IMG/VR virus record: IMGVR_UViG_3300037455_001096
Length of the DNA stretch: 64,000 nt
Reading direction: 5' to 3' (one strand)
From: a virus
Taxonomy: Duplodnaviria > Heunggongvirae > Uroviricota > Caudoviricetes
The notes beneath the pieces are model-generated. The model had not been told where the DNA came from. It did not search any database and saw nothing but the letters and a program-made list of their open reading frames with translations. Shown here one piece after another: positions 21,706 to 39,903 of this stretch. Each line of letters begins with the position of its first letter. Position 1 is the first letter of the stretch. The position numbers and the translations under genes were made by a program.

Positions 21706-21723
21706 CAGCGATAAACATCAGAA

Positions 21724-24700
21724 ATGGACATAAACATCATAACTCAATATTGCGACAATATTTTATCAAACGGCAGCGGTTTGCTTGACAAGGCAAGCCG
21801 TATGCTTGTTCGCACCAACCCGAAACTTTCCACTAACGTCAAGGTTATGACAAACGGGAACGGCATTTGGCTTGAAAGTTACGATGCCGACAAGAATTTG
21901 GCGGACAGCAGGTACAAGTCGTTTGTTGTGAGTTCGGAATCACTGTACAACAAAGACCTCGTTTCGTTTTACGGTACGCTTGATTCCGCGTCCGCTTATA
22001 GGATGTTGCAGCAATATGACGATTTGTCCGTGAAGGACGTTTTCGACTCGCAGTACGAGACGTTCTACCATTGCGGCTGCGAATATGTCAAATCGCTCGA
22101 TTATGACGAGCAGTTCGGTTTTGTCGCCCCGCTTTGGTTGGACGAGAACATACCCGACTACTTTGTCATATTCAAGGTGGAAGAGCCTGCGTATGTGTCG
22201 TTCAGTTCACACAGCGATTCCGCAGTCAAGGCTGCGTCCCGCAATATGGTATTCAAAACGGACATACTTGACAAATGCACGATAGTCAAGACGTTCAGTC
22301 TTAAAGATGATTCGCCGATAGGCAAGTACATAAGGAATTACAGAAATCAAGAGAAGTTCCCCGTTTCCCCGCTCTATGCGAGAATGGAGAAGGAAGGCTA
22401 CCTTTCTTTCAACGGAATATCATACGAAACTGGCGAATTCACCGAAGCGCACGAATACGATTTCGAGCGTATGTTCTGCGTTGACGAAACCGTGACATCA
22501 TTCGACAACTATATCACGGGAGGTTTTGAGCGTAACGGCATTGTGTGCGCAAACATAATGAACATCGAATTCCTATTTGACGATACTACCGCTGACGAAT
22601 ACACAATAAGCAGGTACTTCGGATTGTATTGCAATTTCATTGACGATGGTGTTGTCGCCATCGACTACCAAAGGCTTTCCGATTGCGAAAATCTATACTC
22701 AAGAGGTGTTGCAAAATTTGACAAATACACAACCATTGAAACAACGGCATCCAATCCGAGCGGTGTTGTTTTCCCGATAATACCTCCTCAATTCAGCCAA
22801 AACGACATATTGGCGCATATAGCCGAAGTGAACGATGAGCGTGCGGCAAACGGTCAGCCTCCGTTGGATAATATCGAATGGCTTGATGAAGTCGGCAGGT
22901 ATGCGGGACTCGATAGCATATTGTTCCCTACTTGGGACAATGTTGTTGCCGCAGACAATCCGAAAGACCCTTCGGCGAGCGGCGCGTTGAACGGTATGGT
23001 TCATTGTATTATGGACAGACTCGGAAACTTGCACAGCATAAGCAGGTCGGCGCAATACGCGGCAGACGAGTTGCGACTCACAGACAAGATTGTGTCGCTT
23101 ACCGATTTCAACGGATTTGTCAAAACCAACAGAAGCGTTACCTGCGAATACGAGGATACCGTTACTCCGTCACAGACCGTTTTGACAGTCAACGCAAACA
23201 TCGACCCTTACACAAGGATTATCCTTCACAAAGACGGTTTGACCGACCCGATTGGTTATTTGGAGGCGAGTGTCGTGTATGACGACAACAACACACTTGT
23301 TTCTGTCCCAGGGTGGAGCGAGTATGATATGTTCAGTGGAATAGGCGAGACCACTATGGTCGCCATCGCGTTGGCTAACTCGTTCAATGCCGTGTTTTCC
23401 GAAGTCGGTTTGCACGCATATTACTACAAGAACAATGTGGTGATTGTCGCCTGCAATTCGTCAGACGTTTACAACACATATTATATCGAATGTGAGAATA
23501 ATTCAAACGGCTCTGTGGATTCAATCGTGCTTTCAAACGGAGGCAGGTTCTGCGGTGCTAACGATTATCCGCATATCAAGATAAAGGAAATGTATTCCGA
23601 ACTCCTCCAAGTCGGTGAATATATCCGCACGAAAACTTCCCGTGGTTACGGAAGGATTGTGTCAAAGAACATAGACCTTGAAACAGCAACGATAGAAGGC
23701 GACAGAATGACTTTTAAGGACGGCGTTTACTATGACGTGCTGATTGACGAGAACAATGTTATGGTGAACAGAGCGAAAACGGCAAGCGTCTATGACGAGT
23801 TTGAGGTCTCTTTCGGCAGGCTTTCGTTTTTCCCCGTACACGACTTTGATTTTCAGACAACAACTCCCGTAACGCAATATGGCGATTTTGGCGAACTCGA
23901 CTACGAGAGATGCTATCTCGCGCAAGATGCTGTGGAAACCGAAAACGGGGGCGAGGATGTGACGGTTTTGACACACTATGACTTCGAGGTTGACGGCGAA
24001 ACTCTGACTCTTCTTTTTGAAACGGACGGCGACACGGATATAGTCGGTGTTGAAAACTATGTCGTGACAGTTGACCCGAATGACCCCGACACATTCAACG
24101 TGAGTATGGTTCTGAATCTCTATAACGAGGACTTCAATCCGAGCGGGGAAACTACGAGTGTGGAGCCAGACTTCGATTTCTGCAACCTCAACAGCGACTT
24201 GGCTGACGGTTCTCTCGTCAGCAGCGAGTATGCGAGACTGTACGAGAATTTCAGCAGGGACTTTATGCTGCTTTCAAAGACAGCACCTTACATAAACAAG
24301 TGGGTTTACCACGACAACGGATTTGACGTTAGGGAGCGAAAATACAGATTGAACACGAACCCCGTGTTCGGTATGAACTCGTTTGCCCCCGACCCATACA
24401 CATACAATGACGTAAGCACGAATCCGAGCGGCTTCGGTTGCGAGTGGTACTACATATTCGACAAATTCCCGAAGAAAGAACCCGATACGTTTGACTTCAC
24501 AAGGCTTTGGAGTTACATAGGTGATGTCTGCCCAATCGACAGCGGTTCTACTGCGGAGGAAACTTTGGAGCGTATGTTCCTTGACACGGACACAAACTAC
24601 TTCAATGTGTTTTTTGTCAGAGACCACATTGTCAGTATGCAGAGTGACGGGAATGTTTTGTACGACACGCTGAACTATGTCAAGAAATATTCGCTCATAG

Positions 24701-26700
24701 AGAATGGCAGCGGCAATACAACAGCCGAGACATTTTTCCGTGGGGCTAAAATCGAGTTCTTGCAGAAAACATACTACGGCGAGAAGATTGACAACAATCT
24801 GAATTCGCTTATGGTCAAGACCGACAATATGCTGAACGGTTACAAGTTCACTGCGGTCATTGTGCCGATAAGCGAGAGCGGTGCTTTGGACAACCCGAAG
24901 ATAAAGGTGATACGCAATGATGTGTTCAAGTTTGTTGTTATGCTTGTATTTGTTGTGAGGGAGTACAAGGATGCTTTGGATATTGACGAGTCATCCGAAT
25001 CGCAGTTCAACGCGGGCAACATCACAAGATACCTGCTATACAATCCGCAGAAGGTCTTGAGCGAGGACGCTTACGGCTACGAAACCAATGTGGCGCAGTC
25101 AATCGCGGAAAACCCGATATACGGCAATGAGGCGCGTATAACCGTCAAGGGAAGGGGAACGCTGATTGGATATACTCCGCAAACACACTATATCAAAGGA
25201 AATGACACGAATTTCTTGAACGACTTTTCCGATGACAGCAGGCTTCTGATTGTCGTGAAAAGGTGGTACGCGCTCAACACGGAGTACCGTGTTTACAAAG
25301 TGAAAAGCATTGATACCAACTGCGATATGAAGGTTGAGGCGTTTGACGATGTTGCGAGCGACAACAGATATTCGTCACTCATATCTTATATCAACGGAAC
25401 TTTGGGTTGGACAATGGTGCAGGATGACAACATACCAGAGGGATTGACGGATTACTATATCGCTTACTGCGATGCGGAGGTGTTCGCGGACTATTACAAT
25501 TCCTGCGATTTCTTCAACATCGTAAACAATGTGAACTATACGCAGTCCAATGACGTTTCTTACCTGCACGTTGACCGCAGCGGTAATGTTTACAAAAGCG
25601 ACAACGGCGAGTATTCATACGCATTGAGGTTCGTTATGCCTGCGGAGAATGCGAAGTACGAATATCTCGACTATTCGTTTGACGGCGAGATTGTGTCGTA
25701 TATGAACAATCCGAGGTATTCGTTCCGTATGCACAGATACGGTGGTTGGTTCGAGCCGCTTACAAACCCCGTGCTTTATTTCAAAGACCCGTATCTGAAG
25801 GACGCATTCGAAGACCCGTACAAGGACAACCCGCAAATGGATAGTTTTGCGGACAGCGGCTATCTGTATAAAAAGGTCGCGCTGCTCACTTCCCGTTATA
25901 TGAACACCTGCTTCGCATACGACTATAATGGATTCGGCATTGTCAAGCAGATGGCTTATCATAGGGTGAACGACACGAACAACAATCCGTTCAAACTGAA
26001 AGACGGCGACAAGCCTCTGTATCCCGTTTCCAACAAGTTCGCGATAGGATATAGGGATGTCAATGTGTTCAATTCTTCTTGGGATTTGTGGTATTTCATC
26101 AAGACCAACTCAAACACCGATGAACAGTATGTACACGGAACGTTGAGTATGCTTGAGAAATTCGCTATGCTCGGTTCGAAATGTATGACTTTGCCCGACA
26201 AGATACAGATTGAGGACTTCAAACTCACCGACTTGGTTGATGAAAACTACAAATCGGACACCAAGCACAATGTCTTTGCATACGAGAAAAGCGGAAGTGT
26301 TGGATATATAGTTATGGTCGAGCGCAGGTTAAAAGAGTATATGTTCGGGATGCTCAAGGATTATTTCGAGCGTTATATATCGAACATATATTCATACGGC
26401 GACAAGGAAACAATCGATGACGACATAGACAGATACGTGGAGCAGAACATTATGCCTTTGTATATGTTCGACCACTTCGACTTGTATGTCAAGAAAACGC
26501 CAAACGGAATCAAGCGCGAGATGAACTACACCTATGTCGGTTCAAGCGATGCGGTGAAAAACATACACGGGTTGCGCCCCGACAACACATTTGGTTTGAG
26601 CGTTGTCGATTACAGCGAGTTCGACAGAAAGATTGTTCTCAACACGAAAGACCAATACACCTATGAAATTGCATTCACTCTGCATTTGCAGAAACGATAG
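21724..26700 (+). CDS. very large virion-associated protein (1658 aa), function unknown
   Basis: Uninterrupted 5-kb ORF immediately after the 1245-aa gene. Confidence 0.7.
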   Translation: MDINIITQYCDNILSNGSGLLDKASRMLVRTNPKLSTNVKVMTNGNGIWLESYDADKNLADSRYKSFVVSSESLYNKDLVSFYGTLDSASAYRMLQQYDDLSVKDVFDSQYETFYHCGCEYVKSLDYDEQFGFVAPLWLDENIPDYFVIFKVEEPAYVSFSSHSDSAVKAASRNMVFKTDILDKCTIVKTFSLKDDSPIGKYIRNYRNQEKFPVSPLYARMEKEGYLSFNGISYETGEFTEAHEYDFERMFCVDETVTSFDNYITGGFERNGIVCANIMNIEFLFDDTTADEYTISRYFGLYCNFIDDGVVAIDYQRLSDCENLYSRGVAKFDKYTTIETTASNPSGVVFPIIPPQFSQNDILAHIAEVNDERAANGQPPLDNIEWLDEVGRYAGLDSILFPTWDNVVAADNPKDPSASGALNGMVHCIMDRLGNLHSISRSAQYAADELRLTDKIVSLTDFNGFVKTNRSVTCEYEDTVTPSQTVLTVNANIDPYTRIILHKDGLTDPIGYLEASVVYDDNNTLVSVPGWSEYDMFSGIGETTMVAIALANSFNAVFSEVGLHAYYYKNNVVIVACNSSDVYNTYYIECENNSNGSVDSIVLSNGGRFCGANDYPHIKIKEMYSELLQVGEYIRTKTSRGYGRIVSKNIDLETATIEGDRMTFKDGVYYDVLIDENNVMVNRAKTASVYDEFEVSFGRLSFFPVHDFDFQTTTPVTQYGDFGELDYERCYLAQDAVETENGGEDVTVLTHYDFEVDGETLTLLFETDGDTDIVGVENYVVTVDPNDPDTFNVSMVLNLYNEDFNPSGETTSVEPDFDFCNLNSDLADGSLVSSEYARLYENFSRDFMLLSKTAPYINKWVYHDNGFDVRERKYRLNTNPVFGMNSFAPDPYTYNDVSTNPSGFGCEWYYIFDKFPKKEPDTFDFTRLWSYIGDVCPIDSGSTAEETLERMFLDTDTNYFNVFFVRDHIVSMQSDGNVLYDTLNYVKKYSLIENGSGNTTAETFFRGAKIEFLQKTYYGEKIDNNLNSLMVKTDNMLNGYKFTAVIVPISESGALDNPKIKVIRNDVFKFVVMLVFVVREYKDALDIDESSESQFNAGNITRYLLYNPQKVLSEDAYGYETNVAQSIAENPIYGNEARITVKGRGTLIGYTPQTHYIKGNDTNFLNDFSDDSRLLIVVKRWYALNTEYRVYKVKSIDTNCDMKVEAFDDVASDNRYSSLISYINGTLGWTMVQDDNIPEGLTDYYIAYCDAEVFADYYNSCDFFNIVNNVNYTQSNDVSYLHVDRSGNVYKSDNGEYSYALRFVMPAENAKYEYLDYSFDGEIVSYMNNPRYSFRMHRYGGWFEPLTNPVLYFKDPYLKDAFEDPYKDNPQMDSFADSGYLYKKVALLTSRYMNTCFAYDYNGFGIVKQMAYHRVNDTNNNPFKLKDGDKPLYPVSNKFAIGYRDVNVFNSSWDLWYFIKTNSNTDEQYVHGTLSMLEKFAMLGSKCMTLPDKIQIEDFKLTDLVDENYKSDTKHNVFAYEKSGSVGYIVMVERRLKEYMFGMLKDYFERYISNIYSYGDKETIDDDIDRYVEQNIMPLYMFDHFDLYVKKTPNGIKREMNYTYVGSSDAVKNIHGLRPDNTFGLSVVDYSEFDRKIVLNTKDQYTYEIAFTLHLQKR

Positions 26701-27852: not shown

Positions 27853-28164
27853 ATGGGAGGATATGTGTATCTGATATGCGACCCCGCGACCGACACATAC
27901 AAAATAGGTCGCACAAAAAACAGTGTGGAGAAGCGGCTGAAGCAGATTCAGACGGGCTGCTCCTCCGAGTTGTTCATAATGAACTATTACTATACCGAAT
28001 ACCCGAACCAACTTGAACAGATGCTGCACCGCAGGTTCAAAAGCAAGCAGCAGTTGAACGAATGGTTCAAATTGGAACACGATGACATATTCAGTTTCAC
28101 GGAGATATGCGAACACACAAACGATATAATAAAGGCTCTGCACACAGAACCCGAAATTTATTGA
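27853..28164 (+). CDS. T5orf172 (GIY-YIG-like) domain protein
   Basis: GYVYLICDPATDTYKIGRTKN...RLKQIQTG...LHRRFK...EWFKL. Confidence 0.65.
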   Translation: MGGYVYLICDPATDTYKIGRTKNSVEKRLKQIQTGCSSELFIMNYYYTEYPNQLEQMLHRRFKSKQQLNEWFKLEHDDIFSFTEICEHTNDIIKALHTEPEIY

Positions 28165-28217: not shown

Positions 28218-28294
28218 TTGGTTGTTGATAACTTTGTTGATAACTTTTCTGAAAAAAATTTCACGGTGTATAAAAATTTTATATTTTTGCAGCG
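28218..28294 (+). promoter_or_regulatory. promoter/operator cassette copy A (tandem TTGTTGATAACTT x2 plus TATTTTTG -7 box)
   Basis: ttggttgttgataactttgttgataacttttctgaaaaaaatttcacggtgtataaaaattttaTATTTTTGcagcg upstream of gene 28328. Confidence 0.55.
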
Positions 28295-28602: not shown

Positions 28603-29640
28603 ATGCTTCTCGGACTTGACGACATCACGCTTATCCCCGCACAAATGTCAACTGTGCGTTCAAGGTCGGAATGCGACCCGTATTATCACGAAAAAAGAAC
28701 GATGAACGGGAACTACCTGCCTTTGTTTGCCGCGCCTATGAGTTCGCTCATTGACACGAAAAACTACAACGTGTTCGAGCGTTGCGGCATACACACGGTG
28801 ATTCCGCGCAATGTTCCCGTTGATGACAGAATCTCGCTGTGCAAATATACGTTCTGCGCATTCGGCTTGCGGGAAATCGAGGAAAAATTCATCAACGACA
28901 CGCCGCTTGGATTTTGCAAAATGAGCGGTTGGAACGATGCCTATGTATGCATCGACATTGCCAACGGGCATATGGAGTATCTCTACCAACTCTGTATGAA
29001 ACTCAAAGACAGATACCAAGACCGTATCCACATTATGACGGGCAATGTCGCCAACCCGAACACATACGCCTATATCTGCGATGTGTATAACGGTGTTGTC
29101 GATTATATCCGCTTGGGTATCGGCGGCGGCTCTTGCTGCACAACCTCGGCTAACACGGCAATCCACTATCCTATGGCTACGCTGATAGCGCGGTGCTATG
29201 ACGAGCGTGCTTCCCGAAACGGTGAGGGTTGCCCGAAAATCATCGCTGACGGCGGCTTCGATTCATTCGACAAGATTATAAAGGCTCTCGCCTTGGGTGC
29301 TGACTATGTTATGCTCGGCAGCGTAATTGCGAAATCGGAGGAAGCCTGCGGGCAGACCTATGATGAGGAAAACCTCCGTGGCAGAAGAACGTTTCGCGAT
29401 TACTACGGTATGTCAACCAAGAAAGCGCAGAAGGAATTGGGTAACGCTGAACTGAAAACCTCGGAGGGCATCACCCGAAAGGTTATGGTCGAATACCCGA
29501 TTTCAAAATGGGTTGACAACTTCACATCGTATCTGCGTTCCGCTATGTCCTATATGGACGTGCGAAGCATCGGCGAGTTTGTCGGCGGTGTCGATTATTC
29601 AAGCATTTCCCCAAACGCATTCAAATCATTTTACAAATAA
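28603..29640 (+). CDS. GMP reductase (GuaC)-like enzyme of the IMPDH/GMPR TIM-barrel family (345 aa)
   Basis: DDITLIPAQMSTVRSRSECD, LPLFAAPMSSL, CIDIANGH...GIGGGSCCTT (catalytic Cys loop), IIADGGF and ADYVMLGS align with E. coli GuaC. The length matches a CBS-less GMPR. Confidence 0.8.
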   Translation: MLLGLDDITLIPAQMSTVRSRSECDPYYHEKRTMNGNYLPLFAAPMSSLIDTKNYNVFERCGIHTVIPRNVPVDDRISLCKYTFCAFGLREIEEKFINDTPLGFCKMSGWNDAYVCIDIANGHMEYLYQLCMKLKDRYQDRIHIMTGNVANPNTYAYICDVYNGVVDYIRLGIGGGSCCTTSANTAIHYPMATLIARCYDERASRNGEGCPKIIADGGFDSFDKIIKALALGADYVMLGSVIAKSEEACGQTYDEENLRGRRTFRDYYGMSTKKAQKELGNAELKTSEGITRKVMVEYPISKWVDNFTSYLRSAMSYMDVRSIGEFVGGVDYSSISPNAFKSFYK

Positions 29641-29648
29641 TCATCACT

Positions 29649-30107
29649 ATGGTAAAACCCTACAATGACGAGGAGGTCGCGAAGAAAAACGCCGAATTGG
29701 AAAAGAAATTCAAGGCGGAGCGCGACAGTTGGCAGACATCGGTATCGGAACTTGTCGATATGGTTAAGCAGACATCGAAACTGACCGACTGTATGGTTAT
29801 GGCTCTTTCGTACAGACAGCAGATTATCGAAAGGGTCGCCTATTACCGACAGTCGCTTTACAAACACAAGGCGAAGTATGACGTTCTGCGTGCAGACCGC
29901 TACAAGATGTACACCATCGAAGGCGACATCAAGTACAACAGCACGGAGAAGAACGATGCGGTGAACGCTGACTTGAAGTCGGTTATGTATCAGTTGAACC
30001 TCATTCAGAACCAAATCGACTATCTGAACGAGACCAACCAAACGCTCACCAACCTTCAGTTCGCCGTCAAGAACAAAATCACAATCGAAACCGAGCAATT
30101 GATGTAG
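29649..30107 (+). CDS. coiled-coil protein (152 aa)
   Basis: Heptad-rich, charged ORF. Confidence 0.5.
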   Translation: MVKPYNDEEVAKKNAELEKKFKAERDSWQTSVSELVDMVKQTSKLTDCMVMALSYRQQIIERVAYYRQSLYKHKAKYDVLRADRYKMYTIEGDIKYNSTEKNDAVNADLKSVMYQLNLIQNQIDYLNETNQTLTNLQFAVKNKITIETEQLM

Positions 30108-30108
30108 T

Positions 30109-30471
30109 ATGAGAATCGAAGAACCAAAAGCACTCGGACATCCGAGGAAGATTTATTACTATCGTTCCGACTTGGAGGCTATGCCAACGGACAAACTGCT
30201 GCAAATACTCTCGCTTCTTCGGAAGCAGATTTCAATGTGGTCGCAGCCTATCCATCTTGATTGGGATGAATACAGCGATGACAAGCGGTATGAAATGGAG
30301 GGCAAGATGGTCGAGTTCAGTTGGGACGACAACAACGAATACTATGCTGTGTTTTGGATGGTCAAGGATGTGCTTTCCAAAAGACCGCACGTTCCAAATT
30401 CAAAGCAGGAGCGCAAGGCGGCTCGCCAAATGAGCGCGAAAACGCATAAAAAAATAAAAACGCTTCGTTAG
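30109..30471 (+). CDS. hypothetical protein (120 aa)
   Basis: ATG ORF packed against the neighbouring genes. Confidence 0.5.
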   Translation: MRIEEPKALGHPRKIYYYRSDLEAMPTDKLLQILSLLRKQISMWSQPIHLDWDEYSDDKRYEMEGKMVEFSWDDNNEYYAVFWMVKDVLSKRPHVPNSKQERKAARQMSAKTHKKIKTLR

Positions 30472-30476
30472 TTTTC

Positions 30477-30495
30477 GAAATTTTTATTATATTAG
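30477..30495 (+). promoter_or_regulatory. conserved intergenic motif, variant copy (GAAATTTTTATTATATTAG)
   Basis: Near-copy of the 18-mer seen at 28183 and 43854. Confidence 0.25.
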
Positions 30496-30557
30496 TATGC
30501 AAACAAACGGGTGTATTCCCGAAAAATAAATTCATTAACAATTCAAATTACAAAGTT

Positions 30558-31241
30558 ATGTTTGAAAATTTGCAAAATCAGTTCAACGGAATGTTTGGTA
30601 AGGTCGCCCCTGGTATGTGCCGCCTTACTATGAACGGTAACATCGCAGTCAAATGCTCCGATGGTTACAAGTCTTACAATGTGGAGAAGAAACGCCTCAC
30701 CAACGTGACGAGTTTCTGCTTCAATGTCGGCGAGGAGATGTTCTTCGTCCTGCCCACCAACAAGGTTGAGGTCGGCGACATCATCCTTATCAAAGGCAAA
30801 CCGAAATGCGTTATCTCCGCCAACAAGGAGTGCATCAAGGTCATCGACTACGAGAACTCCGAAATCCGCGAGGTCGTACCCGAAAGACACGTCTTTATGG
30901 GCAGCACCTACTTCTACGGCAGAATCGTCTCTATGTTCGGAAACTCCTTCAAGAAAGGCAAGGGTCTCGGCAATATGATGAAGATGATGCTGATGCAACA
31001 GTTTTTGGGCGGCGGCAACTCCAACGGCGGCAACAACAATATGTTCGGTCAGATGATGGCTATGTCTATGTTTATGGGCAGTGGCAAGACCGAGAACCCG
31101 TTTGAGGGTATGTTCGATTTCGACCTCGATATGGACGGCGGCTTCGGCTGTGACGAAGCCGAATGCGAGAGCGATGACTCCGAAGACGAGCGTCCCGCTC
31201 CCAAGAAAACCAAAAAGAACAGAAAAGTAGAGGAGGAATAG
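30558..31241 (+). CDS. hypothetical protein with a Met/Gly-rich low-complexity region and an acidic C-terminus (227 aa)
   Basis: MMKMMLMQQFLGGGNSNGGNNNMFGQMMAMSMFMG, then a DDSEDE tail. Confidence 0.5.
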   Translation: MFENLQNQFNGMFGKVAPGMCRLTMNGNIAVKCSDGYKSYNVEKKRLTNVTSFCFNVGEEMFFVLPTNKVEVGDIILIKGKPKCVISANKECIKVIDYENSEIREVVPERHVFMGSTYFYGRIVSMFGNSFKKGKGLGNMMKMMLMQQFLGGGNSNGGNNNMFGQMMAMSMFMGSGKTENPFEGMFDFDLDMDGGFGCDEAECESDDSEDERPAPKKTKKNRKVEEE

Positions 31242-31243
31242 TT

Positions 31244-32122
31244 ATGGGAGCAGGAAGTTGGACACCAATGGCATACGCTTCGTACTCTGTTGAAAACAAC
31301 AAGAGTTACGATGCTGACACGCATCGCGTGAGCGGTCAAGTCTATCACAAGTCCTCGTTGGACGATTCACTGAATCCGAGAATGTTTTCGATTCGTGAGT
31401 GTGTCGATTCGGAGGAGCATCCGAACACAATCCCCATTATCCTCGCGCTTGACGTGACGGGTTCTATGGGTCGCTCCTGCATTGAGACCGCTGAAGCGTT
31501 GGGTGTCATTATGAACGAATTGTACAAAAAGTACAAGGACATCGAGTTCTGCGTTATGGGTATCGGCGATTTGGCTTATGACGAAGCACCAATTCAGATG
31601 AGCCAATTCGAAAGCGATGTCCGTATCGCCGAGGCACTTGACAAAATCTATATGGAACAAGGCGGTGGCGGAAACGCCTACGAGAGTTATACCGCAGCGT
31701 GGTATATGGCTCTGCGCCGCACTTCCCTCGACCGTATCGCCAAGCAGGGCAAGAAGGGCATCATTATCACTATGGGTGATGAGCCGCTCAACCCCTATCT
31801 TCCCAAGAGTCAGTTGAATTACGCCATCAAAGGCAGCGAGCAGGGTGACATCGACACGAAGAAACTCTATGCAGAGGTTTCCGAGAAGTTTGATGTCTAC
31901 CACATCGCTGTTAATGATAGCGACAACTGCTACGCTCGTTATTCCGCGAGAATCAAAGATTCATTCGGTGAGATTCTCGGACAAAGACTGAAAGTATCAA
32001 CTGTTAACGAACTCGCAAACGCCATTACGGAGTGCATTGACGATTCCCTTGCAGGAGACTACGAGAATATCGCCGAGCAACCGACCAATATGGTGAATGA
32101 GGAAGGCGAAATCCATTGGTAG
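31244..32122 (+). CDS. von Willebrand factor A (VWA) domain protein
   Basis: PIILALDVTGSMG is a MIDAS-like motif. A strong AGGAGGA ribosome-binding site lies upstream. Confidence 0.6.
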   Translation: MGAGSWTPMAYASYSVENNKSYDADTHRVSGQVYHKSSLDDSLNPRMFSIRECVDSEEHPNTIPIILALDVTGSMGRSCIETAEALGVIMNELYKKYKDIEFCVMGIGDLAYDEAPIQMSQFESDVRIAEALDKIYMEQGGGGNAYESYTAAWYMALRRTSLDRIAKQGKKGIIITMGDEPLNPYLPKSQLNYAIKGSEQGDIDTKKLYAEVSEKFDVYHIAVNDSDNCYARYSARIKDSFGEILGQRLKVSTVNELANAITECIDDSLAGDYENIAEQPTNMVNEEGEIHW

Positions 32123-32123
32123 T

Positions 32124-33233
32124 ATGAACAACGCGAGAATAATAATCGGCGCGAACTACGGTGACGAGGGCAAAGGGACTGTCACCGCGCATTACGCGAA
32201 ACATTCTGACAACGCTCTTAACATTCTGACAAACGGGGGCGCACAACGTGGGCATTCCATTGTCAGCGAACACGGAAGTCATACGTTCCAGCATTTTGGT
32301 TCGGGGACTTACTACGGCGCGGCGAATTATTATTCTCGCTTTTTCATTCTCAATCCTATGCAGTTCGCAAAGGAGTACGATGAACTTGTTGTGAAACCGC
32401 CCGTAATCTATCGGCACGAGGAATGCCGTTGGAGTACGCCATACGATATGATGGCTAACGCCATCACGGAAGAGTTGCAGAGACGGCACGCTTCCTGCGG
32501 TATGGGTATTTGGAACACGATAAAGCGTTATCGGGAAACGGGTACGAGAACCTTCGACAGTTTTTGGAACTTGCCTACTCGTATGAAAATCGAGGAACTC
32601 TATAAGGTAAAGTCCTATTATGAGAAACAGATTACGATTCCGAATAATTGGAAACAAGTTTGGAATTCCGAGGTTCTTATCGTGAACTACCTTTACGACT
32701 GCAAGTTTATGTTCGAACACACGGAAGTCAACAAGGACGAGCGTGTGCTTGCAGAACTCTACACAGACCTTATCTTCGAGAACGGGCAGGGATTGCTGCT
32801 GCGCGACACGGGTAAGGACACTTACGACACCACGCCTTCGGATACGGGTTTGACCGATTCCGCAGTCATACTCTACAAGATGGGTGTTATGGACAGCAAC
32901 GGGAACGCTGTTGGTGATTCAAAAATAACCGCCCACTACGTGACACGCCCGTATCTGACGAGGCACGGTGACGGTGGTATGGAAAACGAATCAAACAGAA
33001 CGGCTCTGTCAAAAGATGTTATGTCAGACCGCACAAACCAATACAACAGATTCCAAGGCAAATTCCGTTACGGGAAACTTGACCTTGACAACTTGAAGAA
33101 AAGAATCGAGTTGAACACGGGCGTAGTTCCTTACGAACTTGAACTGACCCATTGTGACGAGATGGACAGATTGGGTGAGTTCAGACAACTGTTCGACAAA
33201 ATCAATGTGTATGACAAACCCGAAATCGAATGA
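32124..33233 (+). CDS. adenylosuccinate synthetase family enzyme (PurA-like; PurZ candidate), 369 aa
   Basis: MNNARIIIGANYGDEGKGT aligns with the PurA N-terminus and P-loop GDEGKGK. GGAQRGHS aligns with the GGHNAGHT catalytic His region. FENGQGLLLRDTGKDTYDTTPSDT aligns with [24 protein letters not shown]. The protein is shorter than bacterial PurA, as PurZ and archaeal-type enzymes are. Confidence 0.8.
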   Translation: MNNARIIIGANYGDEGKGTVTAHYAKHSDNALNILTNGGAQRGHSIVSEHGSHTFQHFGSGTYYGAANYYSRFFILNPMQFAKEYDELVVKPPVIYRHEECRWSTPYDMMANAITEELQRRHASCGMGIWNTIKRYRETGTRTFDSFWNLPTRMKIEELYKVKSYYEKQITIPNNWKQVWNSEVLIVNYLYDCKFMFEHTEVNKDERVLAELYTDLIFENGQGLLLRDTGKDTYDTTPSDTGLTDSAVILYKMGVMDSNGNAVGDSKITAHYVTRPYLTRHGDGGMENESNRTALSKDVMSDRTNQYNRFQGKFRYGKLDLDNLKKRIELNTGVVPYELELTHCDEMDRLGEFRQLFDKINVYDKPEIE

Positions 33234-33718
33234 ATTGGATTAGCGTAAACGACAGATTTCCCGAAGACGGGCAGCGCGTAATTGTTTGGAACAACAAGTA
33301 CGGCGAGGTTACGTTGCAGGTTTACAACAAGGAATACCAATGTTGGGATTCGGAGAATGGCGTTATCGCCGAGTTCGGACTTGACGAAGAATGCGGAAAC
33401 GGTGTGAGGATAATCGAGCATTGGATGCTTCTCCCGACAAAACCGAGTTCCGACAACACGGTACAGAAAGAAACCGCGCCGTTTGGCGTGGGTGATACTG
33501 TATGGCGCAAAGACCTTTGCACAAACGAGGCTGTTCAAACCAAGATTCGTTCATATCAAGTCGCGATTATGCACGATGACACCAAATGCATCGTGTATCA
33601 CACGGAGGATGATTGCCATACCGTTAATATAGACGGCAATCCCCGTAGCACGGACATATTTGCAACGAAAGATGAATGTGATTCGTTTCCGCCGTTATTT
33701 GACAATTCACAAGATTAG
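33230..33718 (+). CDS. DUF551-like phage protein
   Basis: MNWISVNDRFPEDGQRVIVW is the typical DUF551 N-terminus. Its ATG overlaps the upstream TGA stop. Confidence 0.55.
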   Translation: MNWISVNDRFPEDGQRVIVWNNKYGEVTLQVYNKEYQCWDSENGVIAEFGLDEECGNGVRIIEHWMLLPTKPSSDNTVQKETAPFGVGDTVWRKDLCTNEAVQTKIRSYQVAIMHDDTKCIVYHTEDDCHTVNIDGNPRSTDIFATKDECDSFPPLFDNSQD

Positions 33719-33721
33719 ACT

Positions 33722-34102
33722 ATGTTCACAAAAGAAGAGCGTTCAACGTTCCCTTATTGGTTTGCGCATTGGTGCGCGTTTAATATGACCGCATTGAATT
33801 TGCGGTGTTGGAGATTCAGATTCTTGTTCCACGATATGCTGAAGCCGTGGATGAGGTTGTTTCTCCCTTACAAGACGGTACAGTCTTTTCACAGAAAGCA
33901 CGCCCGTCATCACAAGGAATATGAGGGTCGGCATCCCGATTATCTCGGTATGGTGATTGATTGGGAATGTTCGAGGTTCACGAAAGTCGCGGCGGGTATG
34001 ACTGCCCGTGAGAAAATGGAAACCTACAAGGACAAAGACCCCGTGTTCTACAAAAGGCTGAAAGAAAATTTCGAACCGATACTTTTGCAGTTGGGACTGT
34101 AA
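33722..34102 (+). CDS. small putative HD-type phosphohydrolase-like protein (126 aa)
   Basis: The ordered series AHW ... LFHDMLK ... HRKHARHH ... DYLGMVID fits the H..HD..H..H..D spacing of an HD domain. This is not proof. Confidence 0.4.
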   Translation: MFTKEERSTFPYWFAHWCAFNMTALNLRCWRFRFLFHDMLKPWMRLFLPYKTVQSFHRKHARHHKEYEGRHPDYLGMVIDWECSRFTKVAAGMTAREKMETYKDKDPVFYKRLKENFEPILLQLGL

Positions 34103-34135
34103 AGAAACAATGATTTTATGAATTTAAAAAAGAAA

Positions 34136-34160
34136 AGGAGGCTGATGCCTCCTTTTTTAT
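34136..34160. terminator. bidirectional rho-independent terminator at a convergent junction
   Basis: aggaggc-tgat-gcctcct stem plus TTTTTT, flanked by A-runs. It lies between the plus block end (34102) and the minus gene end (34179). Confidence 0.7.
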
Positions 34161-34590: not shown

Positions 34591-35385
34591 CTACATATAG
34601 TATTCGATAATCACGCCGTTGTCCAATGTGACGTAGTTGTCGTTCAGTTCCTTTGCGTCAAGTTGGCTGAAGTCGTAACCAAGATTGACGAGTGTTTCGT
34701 AAGACAGTTCGTTGGTTTCTTCGGCTACTTCGAAGTATTCGTCCATTTCCTCGTTTTCGCCGTTGTAGTTGTTTTTCAGATAGGTAACAAGCCAAGACTG
34801 TCCGCTGAACTCGAATATCATATTCTCGATTAGTTCGTTTATGTCTTTCCAAGATGTGCATATTCCGTGGTCGAAATACTCGTTGTTTGACGGATAATCG
34901 TCAACAATTTCTTTCGCTTCTTTTAACGAAATGCCACAGTTTCTCGATATTATACCGAGTTCGTCTTTTTTCACTTTTTCGATGAGGCGGCTGTTTTTGT
35001 CTGACAGAAGCGTTATCACAATAGAATCCAACATTTCCTGCGGGCAACTGTTCAATTTGAATGCGTTGAACTGCTCTTCGCTCAACACGGTTTCGTAGTC
35101 ACTGTATTCCGCGTTTTTGTCGAGTCTGTTTGTGAAATTCGCGCCCTGCAACATTATCTGACCGTCAATGTCTGTCAGCAAGTTCCCGTTTTCTATTTTC
35201 ACGTATGAAACAGCGTCTCTGTCTTCCTGCGAGATGTTTTTGAACGCGAACACGCAGCCTATGTAGTTGGTGTAATATGACTTTGGCTTCGGTTTTTCAT
35301 CGGTATACTTTTTCAACTGTTCTTTTGTAATCGGATGTATGTCGAGTTTCTCGTTTATGAATTCTTGTGAATTGAGTATCTTCAT
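34591..35385 (-). CDS. leader-family protein with a non-LRR C-terminal domain (264 aa)
   Basis: N-terminus MKILNSQEFINEKLDIHPITKEQL, with an unrelated C-terminus. Confidence 0.65.
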   Translation of the reverse strand: MKILNSQEFINEKLDIHPITKEQLKKYTDEKPKPKSYYTNYIGCVFAFKNISQEDRDAVSYVKIENGNLLTDIDGQIMLQGANFTNRLDKNAEYSDYETVLSEEQFNAFKLNSCPQEMLDSIVITLLSDKNSRLIEKVKKDELGIISRNCGISLKEAKEIVDDYPSNNEYFDHGICTSWKDINELIENMIFEFSGQSWLVTYLKNNYNGENEEMDEYFEVAEETNELSYETLVNLGYDFSQLDAKELNDNYVTLDNGVIIEYYM

Positions 35386-35394
35386 AATTATGTA

Positions 35395-36147
35395 TTATTT
35401 TTCAATTTTCCCTTTAATCCAACTTGGTTTTTGTTTTGGTAATTTAAGGTTTGGGTTGTTTTTACAACGAAAATCCTTTCCGACTTCCTGCGGTGCGCCT
35501 TCAAGTGATGTCAGTTGGTTATCGCTGCAATCAAAATTCGCACCTACTTCCTGCGGTGCGCCTTCAAGTGAAGTCAGATTATTACTATTGCAAATAAAAC
35601 TCCCATCCACTTTATTCGGTGCGCCTTCAAGAGAGGTCAAATTATTGTCACTACAATAAAAACCTCCACTGACTTCCTGCGGTGAACCTTCAAGTGATGT
35701 CAGTTGGTTTTCGCTGCAATCAAAAAGACCGCCGACTTCCTGCGGTGCGCCTTTAAGCGAGGTTAGTTGGTTGTATTTACACCAAAAATCATCGCCAACT
35801 TCCTGCGGTGCGCCTTCAAGCGATGTCAGTTGGTTGTAACCGCAATCAAAATAACCACCGACCTTATGCGGTGCGCCTTCAAGACTTGTTAATCCAACAT
35901 CCGAACAATCAAAATCACCTTTGATTATTCCAAATTTGATTTTTAATTTACCATCTTTATCGACTACACGGGAATCAATGGTAATGTCGCGGTCACAGTC
36001 GTATAGTTTTGATAATTTGTTCCACACAAGTACGTATTGGTCGATGAATGACTTAACCATCGGCTCATCAAACCTTTTGTCGTTTTTGCCAATAGGTTTG
36101 ATGTTCAGTTTCTCGTTGACATATTCTTGTGTATTGAGTATTCTCAT
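35395..36147 (-). CDS. leader-tagged LRR-like repeat protein (250 aa)
   Basis: MRILNTQEYVNEKLNIKPIGK leader, the YDCDRDI...GKLKIKFGIIKGDFDC linker, then ~22-aa repeats N(Q)LTSLEGAPQEVGxxFxCxx. Confidence 0.75.
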   Translation of the reverse strand: MRILNTQEYVNEKLNIKPIGKNDKRFDEPMVKSFIDQYVLVWNKLSKLYDCDRDITIDSRVVDKDGKLKIKFGIIKGDFDCSDVGLTSLEGAPHKVGGYFDCGYNQLTSLEGAPQEVGDDFWCKYNQLTSLKGAPQEVGGLFDCSENQLTSLEGSPQEVSGGFYCSDNNLTSLEGAPNKVDGSFICNSNNLTSLEGAPQEVGANFDCSDNQLTSLEGAPQEVGKDFRCKNNPNLKLPKQKPSWIKGKIEK

Positions 36148-36148
36148 A

Positions 36149-36982
36149 TCAGTTGATAAATTTTCCTCCTATTCGTTTTGGCTTTCCGCTCAAAGTCCGC
36201 AAAGGGTTGTCGCTGCAATCAAAAAGACCGCCTACTTTCTGCGGTGCGCCTTTGAGTGTTGTCAGACTGTTGTATTCGCATTTGAAATCGCCATTGACCT
36301 CAACGGGTGAGAACTCCAACGATTTTAGTTCGTTGCCGCTGCAATCGAAGTTTCCGCCTATTTTCTGCGGTGCGCCTTTTAGTGACACCAAATCGTTTGC
36401 GCAGCAGTTGAAGTTTCTTTTCACTTCCTGCGGTGCGCCTTCGAGTGTTTTTAGGTTGTTTCTGTGGCAGTAGAAACTGCCGCCTATCTCTTTCGGCGAA
36501 CCCGACAATGACTGCAAGTGCGAGTCGTTGCAGTTGAAGTCGTTTCCAACGTATTCGGGTGCGCCTTCGAGCGACAGCAGATTGTTTTTCTCGCAATGGA
36601 AGTCAAGACCCACGTATTCGGGTGCGCCTTCAAGCGTTTGTAAAAGGTTGCCCGCACAATGGAAATTTCTTTTCACGTATTTCGGTGCGCCTTTCAGAGA
36701 AACAAGGTTCTGCTCGCTGCAAAAGAAACTTCCGTTCACCACGCCGAAGTTTATCTTGAACCCGTTGCCGTCCTTTCTCACAATGCTTTTGCCCGCGTAC
36801 ACATCGTTGTCGCAGTCGTATGCCTGCGTTGTCGGATTGTATTTTAAGCGGTATGTTTTTATGAATGACTCACATTCGGGGTCGGTGTTTCTTCCACTGC
36901 CCATTTTATCGAGAATTCCTTTTGGTATAGGCTTGATGTCCAATTTTTCGGATGTGAGTTCGTATGTTTTCAGAATCTTCAT
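36149..36982 (-). CDS. leader-tagged LRR-like repeat protein (277 aa)
   Basis: MKILKTYELTSEKLDIKPIPK leader and a repeat array L(Q/V)SL(K/E)GAP(K/E)YVxxxFxCxxN. Confidence 0.75.
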   Translation of the reverse strand: MKILKTYELTSEKLDIKPIPKGILDKMGSGRNTDPECESFIKTYRLKYNPTTQAYDCDNDVYAGKSIVRKDGNGFKINFGVVNGSFFCSEQNLVSLKGAPKYVKRNFHCAGNLLQTLEGAPEYVGLDFHCEKNNLLSLEGAPEYVGNDFNCNDSHLQSLSGSPKEIGGSFYCHRNNLKTLEGAPQEVKRNFNCCANDLVSLKGAPQKIGGNFDCSGNELKSLEFSPVEVNGDFKCEYNSLTTLKGAPQKVGGLFDCSDNPLRTLSGKPKRIGGKFIN

Positions 36983-36984
36983 AT

Positions 36985-37590
36985 CTAATTGAATGTTACT
37001 TCTCCTATCATTTCACCGCCAATCCAACTCGGTTTGTCTTTCGGCATAACGAGTCTGTCACCGAAACGATTGTAGTTGTCTTTGCAATAGAAGTTCCCGC
37101 CAACGAATTCGGGTGCGCCTTCAAGGGATGTGATGTTGTTGTGTTCACAGTTGAAGTCGCCAATGACTGTCTTTGGTGCGCCTTTTAGGTTTGTCAGATA
37201 GTTGTGGCTGCAATTGAAGTCATTCGTTTCCTGCGGTGCGCCGACAAGGGAAGTCAGATTGTTGTTGTCGCAGTAAAACGTACCGCCTACTTCGATTGGT
37301 GCGCCTTCAAGCGAAATCAGTTTGCATAGACTGCAATCAAACCAACCCTTTACCACGCCGAATTGTATGGTAAACTTCCCGTCCTTTATATCGTGTTCCG
37401 TCAGACTGACATTGCCATCGCAGTCGTAACGCCTTGTTTTTTTGTTCCAAACAAGGTGGTTGTTTTTGATGGTTGCCCTCGTTTTTTCGTCAACTTCGGG
37501 TTCGTCTGACGAGAACCTTTTATCGTCTTTTGAAATTGGCTTTATGTCGAGTTTTTCGCTTATATACTCCTCTGTGTTCAGTATTTTCAT
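36985..37590 (-). CDS. leader-tagged LRR-like repeat protein (201 aa)
   Basis: Start set at the internal MKILNTEEYISEKLDIKPISK, which overlaps the upstream stop as TAATG. Confidence 0.7.
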   Translation of the reverse strand: MKILNTEEYISEKLDIKPISKDDKRFSSDEPEVDEKTRATIKNNHLVWNKKTRRYDCDGNVSLTEHDIKDGKFTIQFGVVKGWFDCSLCKLISLEGAPIEVGGTFYCDNNNLTSLVGAPQETNDFNCSHNYLTNLKGAPKTVIGDFNCEHNNITSLEGAPEFVGGNFYCKDNYNRFGDRLVMPKDKPSWIGGEMIGEVTFN

Positions 37591-38492
37591 TATGCTTCTG
37601 TTGTATTGTCTATTTTGTCGCCAATCCAATCGGGTTTTTCCTTTGGCAAAACAAGATTCGGGTTGCCTGCGCACCAAAATATGAATTTGACTTTTTGCGG
37701 TGCGCCTTCAAGGGACGTCAGTTGGTTGTTTCTGCAATCGAAACTGTTTGTCACTTTTCTCGGTGCGCCTTCAAGGGACGTCAGTTGGTTGTTTCTGCAA
37801 TCGAAACTGTTGACTTTTTGCGGTGCGCCTTCAAGGGATGTCAGATTATTGTCGCTGCAATGGAAACTTGCTCCTATTTTTTGAGGTGCGCCTTTGAGGT
37901 TTGTGAGTTCATTGTTTGAACAGTTGAAATGCCTGCTCAACTCTTTCGGTGCGCCTTCGAGCGATTTGAGCAAATTGTGTGAACATATATAGTTTTCCCC
38001 TACTTTTTGCGGTGAATATTTGAGTGATTCCAATTTGTTGTGGCTGCAATTGAAATACCCGTTTACCGTTTGCGGTGCGCCATCAAGTGATTTGATTGCG
38101 TTGTATGAACAATCAAAGTGCAATCCTATTGCTTTGGGGATTCCATTGAGCGATGTCAAGTTGTTTTTGTCGCAATAGAAACTTCCATTGACTTCTGTGG
38201 GTGCGCCGTACAGTGTCGTCAGCCCGCATTTGCTGCATTCAAAATCCCCGCTGACTACACCGAATTTTATCGTAAGCCTGCCGTCTTTCACAATACGGTT
38301 GTCAACAAACACGTTGGTGATTGAATCATAACGCATAGTCGCTTTGTTGTAAACAAGTCTGAACTCGTCAATAAATGACTGTGCATTATGGTCTATTATT
38401 TTTTCATTGGAATACTTGTCAAGCCATTCTTTTGATTTTGGCTTTATATTCAATTTCTCTACTATATATTCCTCTGTGTTCAGTATTTTCAT
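37590..38492 (-). CDS. leader-tagged LRR-like repeat protein (300 aa)
   Basis: MKILNTEEYIVEKLNIKPKSK leader and repeats NQLTSLEGAPRKV. Confidence 0.75.
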   Translation of the reverse strand: MKILNTEEYIVEKLNIKPKSKEWLDKYSNEKIIDHNAQSFIDEFRLVYNKATMRYDSITNVFVDNRIVKDGRLTIKFGVVSGDFECSKCGLTTLYGAPTEVNGSFYCDKNNLTSLNGIPKAIGLHFDCSYNAIKSLDGAPQTVNGYFNCSHNKLESLKYSPQKVGENYICSHNLLKSLEGAPKELSRHFNCSNNELTNLKGAPQKIGASFHCSDNNLTSLEGAPQKVNSFDCRNNQLTSLEGAPRKVTNSFDCRNNQLTSLEGAPQKVKFIFWCAGNPNLVLPKEKPDWIGDKIDNTTEA

Positions 38493-38494
38493 AT

Positions 38495-39385: not shown

Positions 39386-39801
39386 ATTTGGCGAATGTTT
39401 ATGAGTTTTACGTATGCTATGTTATCCTCGGATGTTATGTCATATTCGCGGTCAACAAATTTGTAGTCGTTGAACTGCGCGAGTTGGGCGGCATCCGCTG
39501 CGTCAGCAAACACCAAATGAAGGGTCTTTTTGTCTGGCGACACGCTGTATTGCAGGTCTCCGATTTCAGTTCCGATTATGGCATTGTCCGTTATGCTGCA
39601 CTCTCTGCCGTTTGAGGACATAGTGTCGTTGATGAACTTACTTATCTCGATTTCGTTCCAATCAAGCGGCTCGATTGCCTCGTTCACTTTTTTCTGTTTC
39701 TTGTTGTCCTTCTTCGTCTGCTCGATTCTGTCCTTTATGTAACTGTCGAAGTCCATAACATTGCCTTCGAATTTCCTTATCTTTTCAAGTCTGCTATCCA
39801 T
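39382..39801 (-). CDS. hypothetical protein (140 aa)
   Basis: Start set at the internal ATG (MDSRLEKIRKF...). The longer track ORF to 40023 is AT-rich low-complexity sequence and collides with a plus-strand gene. Confidence 0.4.
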   Translation of the reverse strand: MDSRLEKIRKFEGNVMDFDSYIKDRIEQTKKDNKKQKKVNEAIEPLDWNEIEISKFINDTMSSNGRECSITDNAIIGTEIGDLQYSVSPDKKTLHLVFADAADAAQLAQFNDYKFVDREYDITSEDNIAYVKLINIRQI

Positions 39802-39903
39802 AAATTTTTGTTTTTTATTATTTATAAGATGTGGGCTGTATAAATAAATCCGAAAAGCGCGGATTTCGCCTTTTATAAATATATAAATGTAAAACCGATA
39901 ATT

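Follow-up and report, generated by a model that had tools for sequence, protein, structure and literature searches.

Here we describe a three-gene cassette carried by a 64-kb stretch of phage genome (IMG/VR record IMGVR_UViG_3300037455_001096; the whole stretch is called the window below), in which an enzyme of the adenylosuccinate synthetase (PurA) superfamily is encoded directly downstream of a von Willebrand factor A (vWA) protein and of a third protein that is Met/Gly-rich and acidic-tailed. The PurA-like enzyme belongs to a clade with a nearly constant partner, a vWA protein that carries a metal-binding site (MIDAS), and the conserved cassette at 30558–33233, comprising all three genes, is the real unit of the locus. 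A preliminary description of the window had seen in it the theme of a Z-genome pathway or of a purine nucleotide shunt. The open reading frames (ORFs) that it named are present in the ORF list at the positions and on the strands it gave, and its family-level assignments (PurA superfamily, GuaC-like, Gmk-like, NDT-like fusion and HD-like pattern) are correct, the matches of the flagged ORFs being far beyond chance and confirming the observation. What did not stand is its inference of PurZ from a short phage PurA homologue; it had also overlooked the conserved partners of the synthetase, encoded by the two genes directly upstream (30558–32122). The features of the locus are as follows.

28282–28289, + strand: inferred promoter TATTTTTG, 39 nt 5′ of the first gene of the unit (28328)
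28603–29640, + strand: GuaC-like protein of the IMPDH/GMP-reductase family, 345 amino acids (Pfam IMPDH, E=3e-40)
29649–30471, + strand: two small genes encoding 152 and 120 amino acids, ORFs between the GuaC-like gene and the cassette
30558–31241, + strand: third cassette component, 227 amino acids (homologues lie directly 5′ of the vWA gene in relatives)
31244–32122, + strand: vWA-domain protein with a complete MIDAS, 292 amino acids (phrog_2971, E=2e-48; AlphaFold 2 model)
32124–33233, + strand: PurA-like enzyme of a vWA-linked third clade, 369 amino acids (Pfam PF00709, E=5e-22)
33230–33718, + strand: DUF551-domain protein, 162 amino acids (Pfam DUF551, E=3e-10)
33722–34102, + strand: HD-like protein, 126 amino acids (conserved H..HD..H..HH..D pattern)
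34131–34158, both strands: strong bidirectional intrinsic-terminator-like hairpin with a 12-bp stem, closing the + strand unit

By its domain match and active-site motifs, the product of 32124–33233 is a true member of the adenylosuccinate synthetase superfamily. The match to Pfam Adenylsucc_synt spans residues 6–352, the protein falls in phrog_1211 (E=1e-40), and it carries GDEGKGT, GGAQRGHS and FENGQGLLL as quoted in the preliminary description, which had also rightly called it shorter than bacterial PurA (369 amino acids compared with 432 in E. coli). The shortening is due to an absent C-terminal segment, that of Ser414, which longer members of the same clade retain. The functional residues of E. 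coli PurA were placed on 90 members of the clade; Gly12-Asp13-Glu14-Gly15-Lys16-Gly17, His41, Gln224 and Thr239 (E. coli numbering throughout) are fully conserved, and the window protein has the canonical PurA core of Adenylsucc_synt fold, P-loop, Asp13, Lys16, His41 and Gln224. The canonical aspartate site (Thr300/Thr301/Arg303) is absent from it. Asn38 is replaced by Gln (88/89 clade sequences), Thr128-Thr129 by Ser-Cys in the window protein as in the clade, Val273 by His (90/90) and Thr300-Thr301 by Phe-Gln, the first of these positions being aromatic in 79 of the 90 members and the second Gln in all of them. Arg303 is lost, its position being deleted throughout (90/90) with a single Arg of the Arg303–Arg306 run kept, such that the aspartate loop reads NRFQGKFRY in the window protein as against GATTGRRRR in canonical PurA. 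The guanine-specific (N/T)KxD motif has become THCD, with Lys331 changed to His (His or Cys across the clade) and Asp333 kept; the Asp333 position is Asp in 50 members and Asn in 40.

In PurA and PurZ, Arg303 and the tip of the Thr-rich loop contact the aspartate substrate, and Val273 lies beside the ribose C2′ (PMC8342488). The amine-receiving half of the pocket has been rebuilt identically in every member of the clade, which we read as a change of function and not as decay. Together, Gln38, Ser128-Cys129, His273 and aromatic300-Gln301, found in the window protein as GGAQRGHS, ASCG, TRHG and FQG, define the signature of a third clade of the PurA superfamily, previously undescribed and, on residues and profile scores, distinct from both PurZ and standard PurA. 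The distance from the latter is large: the window protein scores 55 bits against the PurA equivalog model NF002223 (cutoff 402), 45 against TIGR00184 (cutoff 396) and 39 against the archaeal NF003295 (cutoff 368), and it is ∼20% identical to E. coli PurA in conserved alignment columns. Judged by these models and by its aspartate site, it is not a standard PurA.

Nor, on the same kind of evidence, is it PurZ, of which the preliminary description had taken a short phage PurA homologue to be the mark. A 2026 survey found the catalytic Asp13 of PurA changed to Ser in 147/147 phage PurZ/PurZ0 proteins and kept as Asp in 99% of true PurA (PMC12884076), and a preprint reports that reverting the PurZ Ser abolishes substrate selectivity. 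At this diagnostic P-loop position the clade has Asp in 88/88 sequences, including the GDEGKG of the window protein, and all PurZ/PurZ0 sequences compared have Ser. The NCBIfam PurZ model NF038379 gives 19.4 bits against a cutoff of 300, with the match confined to the P-loop region; phmmer searches with phiVC8 and S-2L PurZ do not find the window protein at E≤1, whereas an E. coli PurA query does. A profile of the clade scores 137–156 bits with bacterial PurA and 85 with archaeal PurA structures in the PDB, compared with 39 (6FM1), 34 (7VF6) and ∼28–29 (7ODX) for PurZ/PurZ0 structures, and the aspartate-contact loop of PurZ is not conserved in the window protein. In a neighbour-joining analysis of 98 sequences, in which cellular PurA is represented by three reference sequences only, the 90 members of the clade are split from PurA and PurZ in 200/200 bootstraps; the phylogeny that the preliminary description had proposed for deciding the matter thus places the protein on a split of its own and not with PurZ/PurZ0 and archaeal-type PurA.

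The distribution of the two enzymes points the same way. With tblastn, the PurA-like protein matches 224 phage records (Mycobacterium 202, Rhizobium 10 and Vibrio 6, the last being 190-kb phages) and phiVC8 PurZ matches 211 (Arthrobacter, phiVC8-like Vibrio, Microbacterium, Acinetobacter and Gordonia phages); judged from host counts and among the matches listed, the sets appear disjoint. Mycobacterium cluster C phages, which carry the same clade as the window, were not put in the PurZ group by the 2026 survey (PMC12884076). The usual companions of PurZ were also sought in the 64-kb window: phmmer with phiVC8, S-2L and Wayne proteins found no DatZ, MazZ or DpoZ there, and a Pfam sweep of its 59 ORFs found no HD, MazG/DUF550 or DNA_pol_A family. 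The earlier suggestions of a DpoZ-like polymerase and of a MazZ-like protein in the 104-amino-acid product of 44128–44442 fail accordingly, the former with no phmmer match and no family-A polymerase within the window, the latter with no family match and no MazZ similarity. The dUTPase-family protein at 2385–3101 (238 amino acids, with the domain at residues 12–139 followed by an extension of ∼100 amino acids) is the only window ORF matched by the Wayne Dut-type protein. It was considered as a DutZ analogue and set aside as an ordinary dUTPase-family match; the NDT-like ORF has no match to the same Wayne protein.

The gene immediately 5′ of the synthetase, 31244–32122, ends 1 nt before the start codon at 32124. 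Its product has no Pfam match (noise only at E≤10) and a PDB sequence search was null, so the fold was obtained from a predicted model (AlphaFold 2; mean predicted local distance difference test score, pLDDT, 64.5; predicted template modelling score 0.66). Among the matches listed in a Foldseek search of the PDB there are only vWA-containing proteins, including TFIIH p44, complement C2a and integrin I domains. The MIDAS residues Asp70-x-Thr72-x-Ser74 ... Asp179 are conserved in 85–86 of 86 sequences, and the N-terminus reads MGxGxW in 84 of the 86, residues 1–6 having pLDDT<50 in the model. On this model, 31244–32122 encodes a vWA protein with a complete metal-binding site. A role for this partner as an ammonia-delivering glutamine amidotransferase was considered and rejected, as its fold is vWA and the invariant residues of the family include no Cys.

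The linkage of the two genes was observed well beyond the window. A scan of one genome per bacterial or archaeal species with the vWA alignment as query gave 581 confirmed matches, and among the best 80 of these a PurA-like gene lies directly 3′ of the vWA gene on the same strand at 77 loci, the other three being at contig ends. The same pair is present in Rhizobium phage TM30, Vibrio phage pv27, Mycobacterium phage Tonenili and gut-metagenome contigs, and a tblastn search with the vWA protein matches 220 phage records (Mycobacterium 201, Rhizobium 10 and Vibrio 6), a near-mirror of the distribution of the PurA-like protein. To our knowledge PurA is never paired with a vWA gene, whereas this clade almost always is. 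The hosts of the genome loci span Bacteroidota, Bacillota, Pseudomonadota, Cyanobacteria, Acidobacteriota, Planctomycetota and Patescibacteria, and the genes around the pair are often ordinary chromosomal ones, which indicates that a good share of these loci are islands and not phages. The vWA family comprises ∼1,400 clusters at 50% identity, and no vWA/PurA-like fusion occurs in its 150 best representatives (138–409 amino acids). The module may be common to bacterial genomic islands and to the lytic phages of four or more bacterial phyla.

The third component is more variable. The 227-amino-acid protein encoded at 30558–31241, which has no Pfam or PHROG family, combines a beta-rich N-terminal domain with a Met/Gly-rich region, a conserved MFDFD motif and an acidic tail, and its homologues lie directly 5′ of the vWA gene in gut phages L004 and L007, Vibrio phage pv27, Rhizobium phage TM30 and 34 of the 80 genome loci. 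In 31 other genome loci and in Mycobacterium phage Tonenili the same position is occupied by a protein of ∼345 amino acids that joins a J-domain, with HPD in 29 of the 31, to a kinase-like domain without the catalytic Asp (in members inspected by eye). The upstream third component is thus replaceable between lineages. The only other recurrent neighbour is an NrtR-type protein with an intact Nudix box and a winged helix, found by clustering at 45/80 loci and accounting for 24 of the 146 nearest neighbouring ORFs scanned; the Pfam sweep found no NrtR gene in the window. Among the bacterial loci (L017–L096), L024 (3842–4609) and L060 (274–1311) offer examples of such NrtR-like and J-pseudokinase neighbours. 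A microbial PARG gene occurs in two genome loci carrying the pair, and clusters of neighbours judged by eye from N-terminal sequences include nicotinamidase-like proteins at seven loci and NAD-synthetase-like proteins at five. The NrtR-like, PARG and NAD-enzyme-like neighbours hint at an ADP-ribose/NAD context. PADLOC models assign none of the vWA, PurA-like, GuaC-like or J-domain proteins to a defence system, and give only a marginal methyltransferase match (E=0.006) for the adaptor, the informative matches being to the kinase domain of the Tonenili J-kinase and a weak one to Nudix, which leaves the module outside the catalogued defence systems. NARP3 was considered as a related system and is unrelated, consisting of PnuC and NadR. 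We found no relevant literature in which PurA-like enzymes are connected with vWA or J-domain proteins, with NrtR or with anti-defence roles.

The GuaC-like gene at 28603–29640, assigned to this family in the preliminary description, encodes a protein 31% identical to E. coli GuaC and 27% to GuaB. It has the architecture of a GMP reductase, with no CBS insert and no Arg-Tyr flap, and keeps the catalytic Cys (GGGSCCTT) and a downstream Glu-Gly; it scores 121 bits against the curated GMP reductase model NF003470 (cutoff 397) and 110 against that of IMP dehydrogenase (cutoff 482). It belongs to phrog_9582, which is also represented in Lak megaphages, a crAss-like phage, XacN1 and Thermus phages. 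No GuaC-like gene lies within 10 kb of the cassette in the distant gut phages L004 and L007, nor within 6 kb at any of the 80 genome loci, and the phage match sets of the GuaC-like protein and of the synthetase do not overlap, which makes the coupling local to this lineage. The Gmk-like gene (12314–12784, − strand; Pfam E=2e-6, TIGR03263 E=3e-16, PHROG guanylate-kinase family E=3e-26) and the NDT-like fusion (8373–9374, − strand; Nuc_deoxyri_tr2 and Metallophos_2), both confirmed as such, lie 16–20 kb away on the other strand, in a block with an exonuclease, a glycosyltransferase and an endolysin. The fusion and the ORF at 11625–12314 (− strand) both match phrog_547 (phosphoesterase), the latter over its N-terminal 60 residues only, and they flank a GT2 glycosyltransferase, a PD-(D/E)XK exonuclease and the Gmk-like gene; this may be a separate nucleotide or DNA-modification block.

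The HD-like pattern reported for the 126-amino-acid protein at 33722–34102 is borne out by 36 homologues, in which H..HD..H..HH..D is invariant or nearly so. The suggestion that it is DatZ-like is not: phmmer gives no match with phiVC8 or S-2L DatZ, and there is no Pfam match at E≤10. The protein is all-helical and weakly HD-like, and is probably a minimal HD-superfamily protein from a family of 477 matches that has no Pfam model. Its homologues in other large gut phages stand beside, or one gene from, an AAA_28 P-loop kinase (L102, 6001–6932; L104, 6001–7904), with no PurA-like gene within 6 kb of them; the two may form a nucleotide-handling pair. In the close relative L015 the corresponding position holds an 83-amino-acid gene. 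The protein has no conserved linkage to the synthetase and is not part of the cassette.

Transcription probably unites the GuaC-like gene and the cassette, as can be inferred from the −7 motif at 28282–28289 and the terminator at 34131–34158; TATTTTTG fits TAnnTTTG, which we take to be the Bacteroides-type −7 promoter consensus. The layout of the operon, including the GuaC-like gene, is unchanged in the close relatives L015 and L016. These also keep the 152- and 120-amino-acid genes at 29649–30471, which have no Pfam or PHROG match, and the DUF551 gene, which lies 3′ of the PurA-like gene with a 4-base overlap. A T5orf172/MUG113 gene (27853–28164) stands just 5′ of the operon. Upstream on the strand of the operon lie two giant ORFs of 1,245 and 1,658 amino acids (17968–26700, + strand), whose sole matches are the function-unknown families phrog_29329 and phrog_31887. 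Two IS605 OrfB/TnpB (Cas12f-like) insertions occur in L015 (5417–6691 and 16237–17493) and none in the window; in L004 such an IS605 OrfB/TnpB insertion lies two genes 5′ of the cassette. Downstream, 34591–40023 (− strand) holds a series of paralogous genes of ∼210–300 amino acids, by appearance a diversifying family: the N-terminus M[KR]ILN[ST]QE[FY][IV]NEKL[DN]I[HK]PI is common to two or more of them, the gene at 35395–36147 is composed of repeats of the type NQLTSLEGAPQEVGG, and one window ORF matches Pfam LRR_4. Just 3′ of its own cassette, L004 has a DUF285 protein and genes of similar size on the opposite strand.

Elsewhere in the window the Pfam sweep found Band_7/SPFH with Flotillin, PGA_cap, MATCAP, Fib_succ_major and collagen-repeat domains, and a tail-fibre-like ORF (56400–57956) matches collagen-like tail-fibre PHROGs. 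When 24 kb of the window was compared by megablast with 50,697 phage records, no match was obtained, which indicates a phage without a close cultured relative in that collection. The Fib_succ_major domain, the Bacteroides-type −7 motif and relatives in Prevotella/Bacteroidales metagenome-assembled genomes (L017–L020) fit a Bacteroidota host.

The reading that we favour, with a probability of roughly 0.6, is that of a PurA-like enzyme which is neither PurZ nor a standard PurA, has a non-canonical amine site and works with the vWA protein and the adaptor as obligate partners. Our best guess at its function, drawn from the residues kept and lost, is NTP-dependent (probably GTP-dependent) amination of a purine at C6. 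Since the P-loop, Asp13, Lys16, His41, Gln224 and Thr239 are kept, the enzyme most likely still phosphorylates O6 of a 6-oxopurine nucleotide: an NTP would phosphorylate O6 of IMP or a related nucleotide, the donor probably being GTP in the window protein given its Asp333, and an amine would then displace the phosphate at C6. As the aspartate pocket is rebuilt in every member of the clade, this amine would be bound differently or would not be free aspartate, and the reaction may yield some N6-substituted adenylate that is not adenylosuccinate. The two partners, vWA protein and adaptor, could act as a scaffold, a regulator or a device for delivering substrate or target, with the acidic ‘FDFD’ tail of the adaptor as a candidate ligand of the MIDAS, and the GuaC-like enzyme, as a local addition outside the module, could supply IMP from GMP in this lineage. 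Several points weigh against this reading. Substrate and product are deduced from residue conservation only; relocated positive charge (His273 and the one kept loop Arg) could bind aspartate, in which case the protein could be a plain synthetase whose pocket is unusual; confidence in the vWA model is moderate (pLDDT 64.5), and its structural matches have low TM-scores (0.32–0.41), though with E down to 2e-5; the adjacency census comprises the best 80 of 581 vWA matches, the weaker ones lying outside it; and the gene searches cover the 64-kb window.

The protein might instead be an ordinary auxiliary metabolic gene, an adenylosuccinate synthetase using IMP, aspartate and GTP that, with the GuaC-like enzyme and host PurB, would complete a shunt from guanine nucleotides to AMP during infection, the vWA protein being a regulator or unrelated. 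Conservation of Asp13, Lys16, His41, Gln224 and the IMP-phosphate contact Thr239 would be expected of such an enzyme, as would bacterial PurA as the closest solved relative; a GuaC-like gene with GMP-reductase architecture lies ∼2.5 kb upstream in the same transcription unit, and His273 with the retained Arg could stand in for Arg303. Yet Thr300/Thr301/Arg303 are replaced in 90/90 clade members, the protein falls far below every PurA equivalog cutoff, the strict vWA linkage across phyla is left unexplained, the clade has no GuaC-like companion in other lineages, and no PurB gene was found among the 59 ORFs of the window. The GMP-to-AMP shunt, one of the two readings offered in the preliminary description, is weakly supported, and we consider a plain synthetase doubtful, albeit a possibility to be taken seriously. 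The other of those readings, in which PurZ would start the route to 2-aminoadenine DNA by condensing dGMP with aspartate, is already contradicted at the level of sequence and seems to us scarcely credible. It draws on the short phage-encoded homologue, on the PurZ-type name attached to phrog_1211, and on the dUTPase and NDT-like protein elsewhere in the window; that label is generic, as phrog_1211 also covers the Mycobacterium, Rhizobium and Vibrio homologues of the clade. Against it stand Asp in place of Ser in the P-loop, a PurZ model score of 19 bits for a cutoff of 300, structure scores of 28–39 bits where bacterial PurA reaches 137–156, the separate clade (200/200), the null phmmer searches with phiVC8 and S-2L PurZ at E≤1, the unconserved aspartate-contact loop, and a window with no DatZ, MazZ, DUF550, DpoZ or family-A polymerase.

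Two further explanations turn on the partners. In one, the amine would belong to a protein instead of to free aspartate, for example the N-terminal Gly of the vWA protein once Met has been removed, or a target which the vWA protein or adaptor has captured, and a purine nucleotide would be linked to it via C6. We know of no PurA-family enzyme that acts on proteins, this proposal is purely inferential, and the conserved vWA N-terminus may be structural; we hold it to be improbable, even with the free-aspartate site lost and the activation machinery kept, the MGxGxW N-terminus modelled as a flexible tail, and J-domain adaptors at the third position, which suggest protein handling. The view of vWA domains as Mg-dependent peptide-binding modules in conflict systems (PMC9503650) would also suit it. 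In the other, the protein would be non-catalytic, a nucleotide sensor or a poison subunit that heterodimerises with host PurA, with the vWA protein and adaptor as effectors. PurA works as an obligate dimer in which the active sites are shared (PMC8342488), and such partners are typical of regulatory or conflict modules, but Asp13, Lys16, His41 and Gln224 are completely conserved across 88–90 divergent sequences, which argues for catalysis and makes this explanation very improbable. Within the reading that we favour, of a non-standard PurA-like enzyme with obligate partners, it is a tentative step further, and one we think possible without counting it likely, that the vWA and PurA-like pair, the swappable third component and the frequent NrtR-type regulator form a new nucleotide-modifying module, which would make a product other than adenylosuccinate and act in phage–host conflict over adenine or NAD/ADP-ribose pools. 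Candidate activities would be direct amination of IMP, synthesis of an N6-substituted adenylate as decoy, signal or poison, and placement of a nucleotide on a protein amine such as the N-terminal Gly of the vWA protein.

On a practical level, users of phage annotation should be aware that the RefSeq/PHROG-derived label ‘2-aminooxy adenylosuccinate synthetase’ is attached to this non-PurZ clade in Mycobacterium, Rhizobium and Vibrio phages. The PurZ-type PHROG label covers the whole clade, including >200 Mycobacterium cluster C phages, and so invites false calls of Z-DNA; this systematic over-annotation could mislead Z-genome surveys. The clade can be separated from PurZ by a simple rule, namely Asp instead of Ser in the P-loop together with His273/Gln301 and an upstream vWA gene. 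The conserved pair occurs in phages that can be cultured and are genetically tractable (Bxz1-like mycobacteriophages, Vibrio Va1-like and Rhizobium TM30-like phages) as well as in gut contigs of megaphage size. The invariant rebuilding of the aspartate pocket, with the activation site left intact, suggests that a classic family of purine biosynthesis has gained a new reaction, and the recurring NrtR-type regulator hints at ADP-ribose/NAD-centred conflicts. Should the enzyme prove to be a plain PurA, the finding would shrink to an auxiliary metabolic gene that is unusual and has an odd partner.

The cassette can be compared with several known systems. Bacterial PurA (EC 6.3.4.4; E. coli 1ADE/1CG0) belongs to the same superfamily and provides the closest solved relatives of the clade (profile scores of 137–156 bits), and the shared GDEGKG P-loop, Asp13, His41, Lys16, Gln224 and Thr239 predict the same type of reaction, phosphorylation of O6 followed by attack of an amine at C6. 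The clade differs from it in Asn38 to Gln, Thr129 to Cys, Lys331 to His or Cys and the replaced aspartate-site residues, and the window protein in its missing Ser414 segment. PurZ/PurZ0 (6FM1, 7ODX and 7VF6) are likewise phage-borne, shortened PurA homologues with Ser at the Thr128 position. Their own features, Ser for Asp13, a retained Val273 and Thr-rich aspartate loop and an origin from archaeal-type PurA, are all absent from the window protein, and PurZ travels with DatZ/MazZ/DpoZ or DutZ/DmtZ, whereas the window protein is without them within the 64 kb searched. The GuaC-like protein shares the IMPDH/GMPR barrel with GuaC, and differs in belonging to a phage family that scores below the equivalog cutoff; its activity is a predicted one.

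MoxR–vWA, CobS–CobT and ChlI–ChlD are pairs of a P-loop NTPase and a MIDAS vWA protein that are common in large phages too, and they resemble the cassette in that a P-loop NTPase gene adjoins a MIDAS vWA gene. The NTPases of these pairs are AAA+ remodelling ATPases, whereas the PurA family consists of small-molecule ligases, the catalytic residues of which are retained here. A further parallel is with the NrtR/WYL-regulated systems centred on ADP-ribosylglycohydrolase (ARG), with vWA ‘chaperones’, that are predicted to counter viral ADP-ribosylation (Iyer, Burroughs, Anantharaman and Aravind 2022, PMC9503650). Their core consists of an ADP-ribosylglycohydrolase and phosphatases, in contrast to the PurA-like ligase found here, a component that PMC9503650 does not mention. 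The likeness lies in gene neighbourhoods where an NrtR-type Nudix–winged-helix regulator, a vWA protein and exchangeable chaperone-like adaptors come together, and in a patchy distribution across phyla and mobile elements.

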